NCBI RefSeq assembly: GCF_053078305.1
Contig: NZ_CP166879.1
Strand: one strand, 5' to 3'
DNA length: 64,000 nucleotides
The translations under genes and the position numbers were made by a program. Under the pieces are notes generated by a model. The model did no database searches. It was not told the origin of the DNA and worked only from the letters and a program-made list of their open reading frames with translations. Position 1 is the first letter of the stretch. Each line of letters starts with the position of its first letter. This document shows positions 59,040 through 64,000 of this stretch, in pieces.

Positions 59040-61142
59040 CTAATTTGTAATTCTAAAAATCCGATCAACTGTTCTTAAAGTTGTCTCTCTATGTGCAATA
59101 ATCACCCGGGTGATATTCATCTTTTTTATAGCAGCATTCACGAAACGTTCACTTTCTGTATCAAGAGAACTTGTAGCCTCATCCATAAATAATATTCCAG
59201 GTTTCCGGTATAAAGCTCGGGCAATGAATATACGCTGTTTTTGACCGCCGGAAAGACCTTCCCCCAGTTCACCTATTAACGTTTCATACCCCATTGGCAT
59301 TTTCATTATCACATCATGAATATGACTTGCTTTGGCACATTCTGTCATCCATTCGTCGTCTGTTTCTTCTGCAAACCCACAGATATTTTCACGAATTGAT
59401 CCTGAAAATAGCCGGTCGTCCTGCATAACACAGGCTATCATACGGTGATAATTATTTATTCCAAGTTGACGTATATCCGTGCCATTAACCAGTACTTTTC
59501 CACTATCTGGTTCAAACAGTCCACATAATACTTTCATTAATGTGGTTTTTCCGGCACCGGAGGCACCAGTTATAGCCACACTTTCTCCCGGAGCCACAGA
59601 CAAATTCAGACCACTGAATACCTGTGCTGACTGGCTGTCATACCGGTAGCTTAAATCAGTGGTTTCCAGTGAAACCGGGCTCATGTCAGCAACGATTTCA
59701 ATTTCCGGTTTCTTTTCTTCCTTTTCATGTAGTGCAATATCTGCAATGCGCTCATTATGCAGACTCATTATTCTCAGTTGAAGAAGAAAACTGGTCAGCG
59801 AAGCAACCCGATCCGAAAACTGCCCACGAAAAGAACCAAATGCCACAAACATCCCTATTGTCATCTGATTATCGATCACAAGGCTTGCACCCAGCCATAA
59901 AATCGCCACCTGATCACAGGCGGCAACAAAAGTATTTATCCCCCCGAAGAGCAAATCCATCCTGGTTAACTTAATACCTGAATTGATCGCATCTATTTTC
60001 AGGTTAAGCCAGTGTGTTCCCCGAATCCCAGCCATACCCTGGATTTTTACCGTGGCAATACCATACAGGCTTTCCATAAAATAGGAGCTGGCCCGGGCCC
60101 CCCTGACAAGAGTTTCTTCCGATATTTGCCGGTAATAGCCGTATGTCACCAGACGAATAAGAACGTAAACCATGGTAAAACCGAGCACTATCCAGGTAAG
60201 ATATCCTCCATATAACAGCATCATCACAAAAACACCCACAACCATAATACTGTCCATGATTGCCCCAACAACACAGGTAGTAAAGGTGGCCCTCAAAGTG
60301 TCAAGGGAGCCAAAACGCGACTGGATATCACCTAATTTACGGCGTTCAAAAAACGCCAGCGGCAGTCTGAGAAGATGGTTAAACAGACCCGACTGCCACT
60401 GTATATTGATGAGCGTGCTCATAACCAGTGAGGACCATGCACGCAGCATACTCACCGCGGCCCTGAGCAATATAAAGAACATCAGGCCAGCAGAAATAAG
60501 CGTCAGCAGCCCTCTGTCCCCCGCCGGAATCGCATGATCCATAACCAGCTGAGTTCCCACCGGCATTACCAGATTGATTGCTTCAATTACAACTGACAGA
60601 CAGAAAATTTTCGCCAGTGTTCTTTTAATACCGTAAATACTGTTAATCAGTGAACGGAGACTTATGCGGGTCTGCTGGGTTTCCGCCAGGAATTCACTTC
60701 CGGGCCAGACCTCAAGTGCAATGCCCGTAAAATACCGGCTCATTTCCTCCCGACCGAGATATCTTCTGCCTCTGGCCGGATCATGCAGTACATAACGGTT
60801 ACGCTTTACGCTGACCAGCACGACGAAGTGACTGAAATCCCAGTGGAGAATACACGGCATTTTGAGGGCACCAAGTTCATCCAGCTCCAGTGAAAGAGCC
60901 CGGGTGACCATCCCCAGCTGCTCCGCTATTCCATTGATTCCTGCAAGGTTTGCTCCACGGGCCGAGAGATTAAACTTCCGGCGAAGAGATATCAGGTCAA
61001 TATTCTTACCAAAATGACCGCATATCATTGCCAGGCAGGCCAGTCCACATTCAGCGGTCTCCGTCTGATGAATAACCGGAACACGACGTCGCCAGCGCAT
61101 ATCAAGCTGATTTATAATTTGTCTGAAATTCCCGTTAGTCAT
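59040..61142 (-). CDS. Microcin ABC exporter with catalytic C39 peptidase domain (CvaB/MchF-like)
   Basis: About 700 aa from ATG at 61142 ([11 protein letters not shown]...); C39 active-site region [16 protein letters not shown] retains Cys; Walker [10 protein letters not shown], signature LSGGQKQR; closely resembles CvaB from memory. Confidence 0.9.
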
Positions 61143-62409
61143 TGAGCGGTCCTGTTGCACTGTGTTTCATGTCATAGAAAGGAGAAAGCATCCACTGGTA
61201 AATACGCCTTTTTTCCAGAAATAGTGTACTTTCGGCTTTCATTCCATTTTCCAGAGGGAGGTATTTTTCGTCATATCTGATAATCTGCTTTTCAGGCATC
61301 GCAATGACTTTATACCAGGGAACAGAGTCGCCCGGCGTATTCTGTGGTGCTCCCTTATAGGTCAACATTTCCTGTGTTGACGCAGGAGTCCTGGATATAG
61401 TTTTAACCGTAGCAGAGAACTGCCCAAATTTTTCTGCCGGAAAGGCCTCATAACGAATATTCACTTTGTCACCAGCCGAAATATAAGGAACAGCATCATT
61501 CGGGACCCAGAGAATAAGATAATAGTTTTCAATGTTCTCAGGAATAACCTGCAGAAGGCTGTCTCCGGTATTGACCATTTGCCCGACAGTGACACTCAGG
61601 GAGTCAACTTTCCCGTCAGTCAACGCCCGGATAATGATTTCGCCCTCCACATCAGTGTTAACCAGTTCTTTCTGTAACTCGTACCGTTGCAGTTCCATCT
61701 GGTAGATACGGTTATCAAAATCTGCAGCCTGAGTCTGAATCTGACTCTCCAGAGTGGTTATCTGCAGGGCATTCTGTTCGTTCTGTCCGCTCAGGCTGAG
61801 AAGATTGTTTTGTTGCTGATAATATAATGCCACCTGGTTAGTTAACTGATCTTTATTAATCAGCCCTTTTGCCTGATAGTTTCTGTAATTCTCCATATTG
61901 TTTTTCATTATTTTTATCCCTTCCTCTGCACGCTGTATAATATCTGATGAGCGACGAAACGCATCTGTGTATTGCAGGCGTTGTTTTTCCAGGGTATCCA
62001 GCGTTATTTTTTTACTTTCTTCCAGACGGGAAATAATGTTGTCCACACGAACCAGCTGGTTTTCTATATCCCGACGATGATTATCAGTGACAATACCACT
62101 ACGTGTACTTTTACTGATGTCAATCAGATAAACAGGATCCCCTTTTTTTATCAACTGTCCTTCATGAACAAACTGCCTGACAACAAATCCCTGTACACCT
62201 GAATATATATTGACAGCTCTTGGCCAGGTTGTGACCTCACCACTGACATTAACACGGCGGCTATAGGTACCAACAATAATGAACATCAGAAATGCCGTAA
62301 TAAACACTATGCTTCCCAGCATGATTAACCATAGTGGTATTCCGGGAAGTAATATTGCCCGTCCCTGCCACTTCATTTTTCTGTTTTCTAAAGCATCCTG
62401 ACGAAACAA
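61135..62409 (-). CDS. Microcin export membrane fusion protein (CvaA/MchE-like, HlyD family)
   Basis: 424 aa; N-terminus [27 protein letters not shown] matches my recollection of CvaA; TTG start with AGGAG RBS; overlaps the exporter start by 8 nt. Confidence 0.9.
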
Positions 62410-62561
62410 AATAGCTCCTCTTACTCACACTTTTCCTGTAATACCTTCACTGGTTAAGCGAAATGCTATAATCAAAGCCAGAAAATACAGAGTCCTGTCA
62501 AAATAGTATCAGCGATGCATTTACCCCGTAATTTACAATTATCTCTGTATCTTCAGAGGTA

Positions 62562-63014
62562 CTACGTTTTATGCAGCCGCTCAGGGATGTATGTCACAAT
62601 TTTCTTTCGCCTGCTTAACCATCGTACTTCTCCTTCTCCCCATGGCTGAAGCTGTATGAGATAGTCAATAACTTTTCGACCAAAGCCTGGTTTACAACAG
62701 AAATCCAGAATCCAAATCCTTCCATCTTCATTCCATTCAGACGGATGCAACCTGAATTCTGGATCCCTGAGCAGGCGCGCTTCTGTATCAGCCTCAAGAT
62801 ATGCCCAGGTAATATACGCCAGTGGAAAACCTCGTGAATCAAACAGGAATTTAATCTGATTATGCTGTATCGCATATTCAGTCCAGTATTGAATGGTTAA
62901 CACCGGATACAGACTGTAATTACGATTGTAGAGCATACAACTGACCGCAAAACCGATCTGTTCATAAACAGTCCATTCATCTTTTCCTCTGATGGTTTCC
63001 CTTATATAAGACAT
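62562..63014 (-). CDS. HlyC-family toxin-activating acyltransferase homologue (MceI/MchD-like microcin maturation protein)
   Basis: 150 aa; pattern ...PLAYITWAYLEADTEARLL...SEWNEDGRIWILDFCCKPGFG... parallels HlyC (...PVAYCSWANLSLENEIKYL...DWTSGDRKWFIDWIAPFG...). Confidence 0.7.
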   Translation of the reverse strand: MSYIRETIRGKDEWTVYEQIGFAVSCMLYNRNYSLYPVLTIQYWTEYAIQHNQIKFLFDSRGFPLAYITWAYLEADTEARLLRDPEFRLHPSEWNEDGRIWILDFCCKPGFGRKVIDYLIQLQPWGEGEVRWLSRRKKIVTYIPERLHKT

Positions 63015-63039
63015 GATTACTATTTCCCTTATATATTTT

Positions 63040-64000
63040 TTACACTGTGTTTCTTATCGGTTCAAGATATCCAAATGCATCTCTGGAAAACTTAAGCATA
63101 AAATTTTTCATATCAGAAATTGCTTCTTGTAAAAAAAGGGGATCATCGCCATGATTATCCAGCAGGATGGCAATTTTTTCGCACATATTTTCTTTCCTCA
63201 GCTCTTCCCTGGGTTGCAGCCTTTTCATGGTATGATGTTCAATTTCTTTCAGGAGTAATGAGGCATTTATCTGACGTCTGGTACTGCCTTGCGTCAGCCA
63301 GTGGATGGCCTGGGAAAAACACTGTTGTGCAACGGTGAAATGAACATCATTCTTGATGCTACTATTCAGTGCCTGCTTTTGATTATGCCTATGATGGATT
63401 AGCGTCACAACCAACTTTTGCAATGGTGAACCATCCTGATTGACAATATCTTGGGCATGTGATTTCTCGCAGTATTGATTGAGTAATGCAACAAAACTGT
63501 TAACCAGTTCTTTCAATATATCAGGTATCTCTTTTTGTGTTATAAATTCTCCAGGAATACCCAACAGTTCTAGATAACAGTAATAACATGCTTCATGAAA
63601 AGTTTTCTGAAATATCTCCTCAACCTTCAAACGGGCTGCAAGAGTGAAGTCAGGGTCAAACATATATTTTCCGATATACAAGCAGAGATCAGACAGCCCT
63701 TGCATAAGTACCATCGGTTCTTTTGCCAGTTCAGCTAATCTTAGTTTATACCCAAAATCAGCTGGGGAATCTCCCGGAAACAGACAACTGAGTCCGTTAA
63801 AATCCATTAATCTGCCATCCATTGCAATATTAGAAGGAGAAGTTGTCAATCTCAGGAAACGTGTTCGACAAAATGCCATTTGCCAGGCCTCACGACGTGC
63901 CAGTTCACATAACCCCTCAATGCAATAAATCCGGGGATCAGTTCGTGCTTCAGCATCAATTTCTTCCGGTGGTACAGGTAGATATCCTGGCAGCTTGTGG
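63040..64000 (-). CDS. MceJ/MchC-like microcin maturation protein, C-terminal part; gene runs off the window end
   Basis: Frame stays open upstream of the ORF-track ATG (63879) to position 64000 with no stop; assignment rests on position next to the acyltransferase gene. Confidence 0.5.
   Translation of the reverse strand, partial: HKLPGYLPVPPEEIDAEARTDPRIYCIEGLCELARREAWQMAFCRTRFLRLTTSPSNIAMDGRLMDFNGLSCLFPGDSPADFGYKLRLAELAKEPMVLMQGLSDLCLYIGKYMFDPDFTLAARLKVEEIFQKTFHEACYYCYLELLGIPGEFITQKEIPDILKELVNSFVALLNQYCEKSHAQDIVNQDGSPLQKLVVTLIHHRHNQKQALNSSIKNDVHFTVAQQCFSQAIHWLTQGSTRRQINASLLLKEIEHHTMKRLQPREELRKENMCEKIAILLDNHGDDPLFLQEAISDMKNFMLKFSRDAFGYLEPIRNTV

Follow-up and report, generated by a model that had tools for sequence, protein, structure and literature searches.

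A class IIb microcin island of Escherichia coli with microcin Ec W, whose esterase and glycosyltransferase genes probably lie just past the analyzed window

Gene content of the island end

Between 56.7 and 64.0 kb, the 64-kb stretch of DNA analyzed here (the window) carries two convergent gene strings, one with orf152, an mcmM-like gene, EcWI, and EcWA and the other with mchF, mchE, mchD, and mchC (Table 1). The initial annotation had described a siderophore-microcin export and maturation module, which is correct, and the exporter, the adaptor, the HlyC-family gene, and the MchC-like gene are all found where it had placed them, on the minus strand.

Table 1. Coordinates of the features in the window
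Feature	Position	Strand	Description
ireA	11344-13479	-	NCBIfam NF010011, 1513.6 bits (cut-off 1197)
Fur-box matches	56680..56704		Overlapping pair (17/19; 15/19), ~100 nt upstream of orf152
orf152	56802..57260	+	Conserved hypothetical membrane protein, island edge; family search without a match
mcmM-like	57358..58044	+	CPBP/CAAX intramembrane protease, 228 aa; PF02517, 2.4e-17
EcWI	58490..58654	+	Ec W immunity peptide, 54 aa, hydrophobic; ends one base upstream of EcWA
EcWA	58656..58979	+	Ec W precursor, 107 aa; 15-aa leader ending GA; C-terminal SSTSSSSSGS tail
Hairpin and T-run	58990..59030		GCAGCAATGCTGC then TTTT; between convergent EcWA and mchF
mchF	59040..61142	-	ABC transporter for microcin export, C39 leader peptidase at N terminus; 700 aa with the RefSeq start; Pfam Peptidase_C39, ABC_membrane, ABC_tran
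mchE	61135..62409	-	HlyD-family periplasmic adaptor, 424 aa; Pfam HlyD_3, HlyD_D23, Biotin_lipoyl_2
mchD	62562..63014	-	MceI homologue, HlyC/TAAT-fold protein, 150 aa; PF02794
mchC	63040..64000	-	MceJ homologue, SelO/YdiU-like kinase-fold protein; last 320 of 516 codons, gene interrupted by window edge

The exact MchF sequence carries this name in public records, and its Pfam domains are unambiguous (Peptidase_C39, 9e-40; ABC_membrane, 1.4e-51; ABC_tran, 9.4e-33). Cys32, His105, and Asp121 align with the catalytic Cys, His, and Asp of the PCAT1, ComA, and LahT peptidase domains; judged by this alignment, the catalytic residues of the C39 domain are intact, and MchF and MchE make up the exporter and HlyD-family adaptor set of a class IIb cluster. 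MchE matches TIGR01843 at 1.1e-29, while the members of its sequence cluster bear the names CvaA or HlyD family. An upstream GTG at 61160 is an alternative start for mchF and gives a 706-aa ORF.

EcWA has the composition of a class IIb precursor, with the leader MRNITTDELALIHGA followed by G and a serine-rich tail, in agreement with the published Ec W. It is identical at 106 of 107 residues to the NCTC10444 peptide (WP_001390454.1), the difference being a Ser here versus the published Gly at residue 31 (G31S), and the exact variant is WP_072010583.1. The 165 nt of EcWI and its one-nucleotide spacing to EcWA likewise agree with the published description of the immunity gene. The published study places Ec W between mchF and mcmM and demonstrates activity of, and immunity to, the NCTC10444 peptide, the activity with a class IIb expression system when iron was limited (PMC12999681). 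By analogy with that system, the Ec W precursor is the presumptive substrate, inside the window, of the export and maturation module. EcWI and EcWA (58490-58979) fall just outside the segment covered by the initial annotation (59040-64000). At the hairpin that separates EcWA from mchF, a longer inverted repeat (AAAGCAGCA...TGCTGCTTTT) is also present within 58990..59030, and the structure is likely a terminator.

A candidate enzyme pair for joining siderophore and peptide

MchD scores 44 bits against PF02794 (cut-off 25; 2.4e-11), so that the HlyC-family signature is present, and it matches ApxC (4whn) at 1.2e-4. HlyC/ApxC toxin-activating acyltransferases (TAAT) use a catalytic His/Asp pair. 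Opposite Asp93 of ApxC, MchD has Glu93, a residue that does not vary among 24 MchD homologues, while the N-terminal His region was unalignable with either the single sequence or the 24-sequence profile. No RTX protoxin gene is found beside mchD in the island, where the neighbors are microcin genes; therefore, the RefSeq name “toxin-activating lysine-acyltransferase” denotes a fold rather than a function. One member of the MchD cluster is named “putative microcin H47 activating protein,” and by analogy MchD may be one of two enzymes that together attach the siderophore to the peptide.

The other partner would be MchC, a protein named so in public records with a SelO-like fold over its whole length, of which only residues 197-516 are inside the window. 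The initial annotation had called the MchC-like gene truncated, which does not hold: the frame runs for 320 codons without a stop up to base 64000, and the last 1001 bases of the window are 100% identical to a genome with a full 516-aa mchC, so it is the window that cuts the gene. K86, E115, N254, and D263 are invariant in 40 MchC homologues, down to 26% identity, and may correspond to the kinase-core Lys and Glu, the catalytic-loop Asn, and the metal-binding Asp. Members of the SelO/YdiU family transfer AMP or UMP to protein side chains, and the MceIJ joining step depends on ATP and Mg. For MchC, the expected substrate would be the carboxylate at a C terminus rather than a side chain. The locus thus holds both halves of the MceI/MchD (HlyC fold) and MceJ/MchC (SelO-like) pair found in class IIb clusters.

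Esterase and glycosyltransferase genes beyond the window

As the initial annotation had noted, the genes for the esterase and the glycosyltransferase are absent from the 64-kb window: a tblastn search of it with both island proteins (E up to 10) gave a best value of 0.098, which is noise. Its suggestion that the two genes lie beyond position 64000 is borne out in relatives, from which the arrangement in the source strain is deduced. Nine related contigs were read past the point equivalent to the window edge (04-00955, JNEC-KY174, NCCP 13963, STEC2018-553, FHI_NMBU_11, NCTC10444, O104:H4 C227-11, and two with the exact G31S Ec W variant). In all nine, mchC is followed by mchB, mchI, mchS3, a 424-aa esterase-type protein, and a 372-374-aa glycosyltransferase. 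The 424-aa protein has Enterochelin_N (4e-28) and Esterase (2.5e-27) domains, and its enterochelin-esterase-type gene is situated 3.1-4.4 kb past the window end; the IroB-type glycosyltransferase gene, whose product is EryCIII-like (8e-51 and 8e-49), is situated at 4.5-5.7 kb and is frameshifted in one contig. We infer that both enzyme genes of the source strain occupy approximately window-equivalent positions 67.1-69.7 kb, a location that rests on relatives, the closest complete RefSeq genomes being 99.0-99.3% identical to the window over 25 kb. The two contigs with the G31S variant are 98.7% identical to the window and serve as proxies.

Since both genes are found 3.1-5.7 kb past the edge in the nine contigs, there is probably no biological gap, and an iro locus does not have to be called upon. 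The apparent lack of the two genes is best read as an artefact of the window edge, which, judging from these contigs, stops 3 to 6 kb short of both. The useful outcome is a correction: a seeming gap in a biosynthetic pathway was created by where the window was cut. Our reading, to which we assign a probability of roughly 0.92, is that the archetypal class IIb (siderophore) microcin island of the E. coli chromosome has one of its ends at positions 56.7-64.0 kb, in a variant in which microcin Ec W replaces the microcin M pair and the glycosyltransferase and esterase genes follow past the window edge.

It is improbable that the island of the source strain is instead truncated as in the Nissle 1917/CFT073 type, where mcmL and mcmK are absent and IroB (and ClbP) are supplied by other islands. 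Truncated islands are common, with many genomes matching mchF to mchI only (e.g., ATCC 25922, query 459-7674 of 11101), and their dependence on IroB/ClbP is published (PMC7472721). Yet the truncated islands among the matches start at query base 459 and consequently are missing the Ec W segment, while every Ec W-bearing contig examined has both enzyme genes. An island of this type would also contain transposase remnants after mchX/mchI and encode MccM; the Ec W relatives all continue to mcmK and mcmL.

There is likewise only a small chance, if a slightly larger one, that the source strain has both genes past the window edge but an inactivated glycosyltransferase, in which case maturation would fail or depend on iroB. 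Such decay does occur, as the glycosyltransferase of NCCP 13963, one of the six closest complete genomes, is frameshifted, and the O104:H4 island has an IS5 insertion and a split mcmM. However, the glycosyltransferase is intact in eight of the nine contigs read, and the island genes inside the window are all intact.

Finally, mchF and mchE are ~92% identical in DNA sequence to cvaB and cvaA, respectively, which would suit a class IIa (colicin V-like) exporter of an unmodified peptide for which neither enzyme is necessary. This explanation is the most improbable, given that mchC and mchD belong to the same gene string as mchF and mchE, that the Ec W precursor has a serine-rich class IIb tail, that relatives carry both enzyme genes, and that Ec W was shown to be active when made in a class IIb expression system with iron in limited supply (PMC12999681).

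Relation to known microcin systems

Earlier publications cover the island as well as its Ec W variant and what the two enzymes do. The class IIb island identified here corresponds to the second class IIb cluster of E. coli NCTC10444 (the Ec W/MccH47 island), which includes mcmL and mcmK (Bhattarai, Bucci & Mortzfeld 2025; PMC12999681) and whose published coordinates extend from the start of the CPBP (mcmM) gene to the end of the glycosyltransferase gene. The gene order is the same, namely, orf152, mcmM, EcWI, EcWA, mchF, mchE, mchD, mchC, mchB, mchI, mchS3, esterase, and glycosyltransferase (the window itself ends in mchC), with 99.35% DNA identity over the shared 8.27 kb. In contrast with NCTC10444, in which orf152 is frameshifted, the window has an intact orf152, and its island abuts a Sci-1-type T6SS.

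E. coli CA46 and H47 carry the archetypal MccH47/I47/M island (Poey 2006; Vassiliadis 2010; review, PMC7472721), which shares the mchCDEF backbone, the mcmL/mchA and mcmK/mchS1 enzymes, and MccH47 with its immunity gene; a further likeness is the MccI47-like 77-aa ORF adjoining mchS3. Between mchF and mcmM, the CA46/H47 island carries the microcin M precursor/immunity pair, whereas the unrelated Ec W pair occupies this place here in the opposite orientation (PMC12999681). The truncated island of Nissle 1917, CFT073, and ABU83972 has the same mchB-F genes (98.9% DNA identity) but has neither the glycosyltransferase nor the esterase and depends on IroB and ClbP instead, while the Ec W island type keeps both enzymes in all relatives.

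The pathway was elucidated biochemically with the MccE492 cluster (mceABCDEFGHIJ) of Klebsiella pneumoniae RYC492, where MceG, MceH, MceI, MceJ, MceC, and MceD are the one-to-one functional counterparts of MchF, MchE, MchD, MchC, the glycosyltransferase, and the esterase, respectively; MceF we take to be the counterpart of McmM. The two clusters differ in precursor, target, gene order, and species.

Proposed maturation pathway

The following pathway is established for MccE492/H47 and is transferred here by homology, with the roles taken from PMC7472721. The Ec W, MccH47, and MccI47-like precursors would be synthesized as peptides with a 15-aa leader of the double-glycine type and a serine-rich tail. 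Enterobactin would be C-glucosylated by the IroB-like glycosyltransferase (McmL/MchA), after which MchC and MchD, by analogy, may link the sugar as an ester to the carboxylate of the C-terminal serine of the peptide. The IroD-like esterase (McmK/MchS1) would linearize the enterobactin ring, and the C39 domain of MchF would remove the leader while MchF exports the conjugate with MchE and TolC. Genes for the MccH47 and MccI47-like precursors probably follow just past the window edge. The initial annotation had taken both the glycosyltransferase and the esterase to be needed for maturation; the glycosyltransferase step is indeed required, but the esterase is not strictly so, as Nissle-type islands make microcins without it (PMC7472721; PMC12999681).

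Iron regulation

A clustering of iron-related functions had been proposed from an IreA-like receptor gene with a Fur box. The identity of IreA stands, but the Fur box upstream of its gene (13419-13437) is weak, with 15/19 matches, and the strong predicted one belongs to the microcin island. This best Fur box in the window, with 17/19 matches at 56680-56698, precedes orf152, mcmM, and the Ec W genes, and the two overlapping matches there also overlap a promoter-like TTGATA-17-TATCGT. The window contains four Fur-like positions with at most four mismatches, versus 0.26 expected from shuffles, and in the 04-00955 locus the counterpart of the 56680..56704 site is the only one of this stringency in the whole island. 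No Fur box with at most four mismatches was found at the mchX/mchI-mchB promoter of a related island, and a promoter scan was uninformative (27 sites versus 23.2 expected).

Distribution and database annotation

Ec W-specific DNA is present in 116 of 5426 complete genomes. The multi-microcin island thus occurs in about 2% of the complete genomes of E. coli, and the lineage of the 2011 O104:H4 outbreak is one of its carriers; this bears on studies of gut competition. Among these 116 genomes, at least 101 match all 11.1 kb from Ec W through the glycosyltransferase with 100% coverage, a figure obtained by rank in an evenly spaced listing, and up to 15 may be without the uninterrupted arrangement. 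A higher count of 284 genomes was rejected for the Ec W variant, as it takes in microcin M-type islands, which have all but about 1 kb in common with it. The junction at which the island abuts a Sci-1-type T6SS, as it does here, occurs in only 12 of the 5426 complete genomes.

In RefSeq, Ec W, MchC, and orf152 are labeled “hypothetical protein,” MchD carries the fold-based name discussed above, and EcWI and the MccI47-like gene have no annotation. With such labels, automated readers will go on misjudging the island. The orf152 cluster comprises 2386 E. coli sequences, every one of them named hypothetical.

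Both enzyme genes probably lie just past the window

Four minus-strand genes occupy the microcin export and maturation segment at 59040-64000 (table), including the CvaA-like adaptor and the HlyC-family gene (mchD) expected from the initial annotation. The exact exporter sequence is named MchF in public records. Alignment of its N-terminal domain to double-glycine peptidase domains of known structure, those of LahT, ComA, and PCAT1, pairs Cys32, His105, and Asp121 with the catalytic Cys, His, and Asp of these domains, so the earlier statement that the C39 Cys is retained is correct. 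The fourth gene, described as truncated and MceJ/MchC-like, is present but not truncated: its frame is open, and the final 1001 bases of the window match E. coli 04-00955 at 100% identity, and in that genome the frame is a complete 516-aa gene, named MchC by the sources. The window edge thus cuts mchC.

Coordinates of the features in and just past the window
Feature	Position	Strand	Remarks
IreA	11344-13479		NF010011 (equivalog model), 1513.6 bits (cut-off 1197)
Fur-like site upstream of ireA	13419-13437		15/19
Second Fur-like site	14279-14297		15/19
T6SS	~29000-54100		TssB/C/H/K/L, Hcp, VgrG, Tle1-EAEC phospholipase with Tli1 immunity
Top Fur-like site	56680-56704		17/19 plus overlapping 15/19
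CPBP/CAAX protease gene (mcmM)	57358-58044	+	Just outside the segment
EcWI	58490-58654	+	Hydrophobic 54-aa ORF
EcWA	58656-58979	+	107-aa ORF, starting one base after EcWI
MchF	within 59040-64000	-	700 aa (706 from upstream GTG); Peptidase_C39, ABC_membrane, ABC_tran domains
HlyD-family adaptor	within 59040-64000	-	424 aa
MchD, HlyC family	within 59040-64000	-	150 aa; PF02794, 44 bits (cut-off 25)
MchC-like frame	63040 to last window base	-	320 codons, stop-free
Esterase gene (predicted)	~67112-68386		
Glycosyltransferase gene (predicted)	~68528-69652		

As first noted, the IroB-like glycosyltransferase and IroD-like esterase are missing from the window: a tblastn search of all 64 kb with the island versions of both gave nothing better than an E value of 0.098. 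The DNA is that of E. coli, and nine related contigs were followed beyond the point corresponding to position 64000: the five closest complete genomes (04-00955, JNEC-KY174, NCCP 13963, STEC2018-553, and FHI_NMBU_11), NCTC10444, O104:H4 C227-11, and two draft contigs with the window's exact Ec W variant. All nine share one gene order, namely the rest of mchC, mchB (microcin H47), mchI, mchS3, a 424-aa protein with Enterochelin_N (2.5e-27) and Esterase (4e-28) domains whose top NCBIfam match is enterochelin esterase, and a convergent 372- to 374-aa protein with EryCIII-like glycosyltransferase N and C domains (8e-51 and 8e-49). Of 5426 complete genomes, 116 contain the ~0.8 kb specific to the Ec W island variant, and the complete 11.1 kb running from Ec W through the glycosyltransferase was found at 100% coverage in at least 101 records, the rank reached in an evenly spaced ranking of matches; the full arrangement is thus kept in at least 101 of the 116.

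Truncated islands that borrow IroB and ClbP are real, having been published for Nissle-type strains, but in those among the matches listed the Ec W segment is absent, and both enzymes are retained in all the Ec W contigs that were read; such a truncation in the source strain is very improbable. An inactivated glycosyltransferase is slightly less so, though still unlikely: in one of the nine contigs, that of NCCP 13963, the gene is frameshifted (5634-6760 of its locus, L003) in an otherwise near-identical island, which may offer a natural test case for iroB dependence. With a probability of about 0.9, both genes would lie past the window end, the first option of the initial annotation, and their absence would reflect the window boundary, not biology. 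Since the source genome is outside the complete-genome set (best identity, 99.0 to 99.3% over 25 kb), this conclusion rests on relatives.

The island encodes microcin Ec W

The two ORFs at 58490-58979 are identifiable by sequence as microcin Ec W and its immunity peptide; the precursor has a 15-aa leader with a GA end and the tail SSTSSSSSGS. Ec W was described in 2025 for NCTC10444, in reverse orientation and flanked by mchF and mcmM, in a cluster including mcmL (glycosyltransferase) and mcmK (esterase) (PMC12999681); in the NCTC10444 locus, the CPBP start and glycosyltransferase end coincide with the published cluster coordinates. The window is 99.35% identical to this locus over 8.27 kb, and its peptide differs at 1 of 107 residues (106/107 identical; Gly31 to Ser, mature residue 16). 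This exact variant is public as WP_072010583.1. The system, including its Ec W variant, was known already. In RefSeq, the precursor is a "hypothetical protein" and the immunity gene is not annotated.

MccH47 is a further product of the island, encoded past the window. There, an ORF of 77 aa adjoining mchS3 (30093-30326 of the 04-00955 locus, L001; 11694-11927 of another related locus, L007), which has no annotation, resembles a variant of microcin I47 in its double-glycine leader and its tail, SSSTSSANSGS. The module would thus serve three class IIb (siderophore microcin) precursors. Class IIa-type export of unmodified peptide is contradicted by the presence of mchC and mchD, by the Ec W tail, and by the published Ec W assay conditions, and is scarcely credible.

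Predicted roles of MchC and MchD

We infer the pathway in this strain by homology to that established for MccE492 and MccH47/M (PMC7472721). Enterobactin would be C-glucosylated by the IroB-like enzyme, MceIJ/MchCD would join the sugar to the precursor's C-terminal serine, the IroD-like esterase would linearize the ring, and the exporter's C39 domain would cut the leader during export via MchEF and TolC.

The review of this pathway leaves the exact contributions of MchC and MchD unassigned (PMC7472721); sequence profiles had already linked MchC to SelO in 2012 (PMC3281104). In a structure predicted from a 40-sequence alignment (pLDDT 86, pTM 0.90), the top nine Foldseek matches of the MchC model were all YdiU or SelO. 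K86, E115, N254, and D263, invariant across this alignment, are taken to be the Lys, Glu, and Asn of the kinase core and its metal-binding Asp. Nolan et al. reportedly found in 2007 that MceIJ needs ATP and Mg. Given this and the SelO-like fold, the likeliest mechanism is that MchC would adenylate the peptide carboxylate, with the HlyC-fold MchD helping the subsequent transfer. Invariant Glu93 of MchD aligns opposite Asp93 of ApxC, no residue of MchD could be aligned with the N-terminal catalytic His, and no RTX toxin was found near mchD; "lysine acyltransferase" thus names the fold and no more. Full-length MchC homologues (26 to 45% identity) occur in Pseudomonas, Burkholderia, Paraburkholderia, Azospirillum, Pseudogulbenkiania, and Photorhabdus, which hints at peptide tailoring of the MchC/MchD type well beyond Enterobacteriaceae.

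Iron regulation and genomic surroundings

The IreA-like receptor of the initial annotation is indeed IreA, but its Fur-like site is weaker than that ~100 nt upstream of orf152 (a hypothetical protein gene), mcmM, EcWI, and EcWA; the latter site overlaps a pair of promoter-like hexamers. The window has four positions with no more than four mismatches, against 0.26 expected; the same scan found no other Fur-like sites in a related island. The placement of the 17/19 site suggests that Ec W belongs to a putative unit repressed by iron, distinct from the Fur box reported in the literature upstream of mchX.

A Sci-1/EAEC-type T6SS directly adjoins the island, a junction found at ≥80% coverage in only 12 of 5426 complete genomes. 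G+C content is 30 to 34% over the mcmM/Ec W segment (57000-59000) versus 56 to 59% in the adjacent T6SS (45000-52000), consistent with a separately acquired islet within the island. The Ec W/H47 island is also present in the 2011 outbreak lineage (O104:H4 C227-11, NZ_CP011331.1 2490256-2514045); there, mchS3 and the esterase gene are separated by an IS5-family insertion, and mcmM is split into two ORFs. Many O157:H7, O145, O111, and O55:H7 genomes carry only the glycosyltransferase and a partial esterase (99.5% identity; ~31625-33200 of L001, query 9525-11101 of 11101), which appears to be an island remnant without microcin or export genes.
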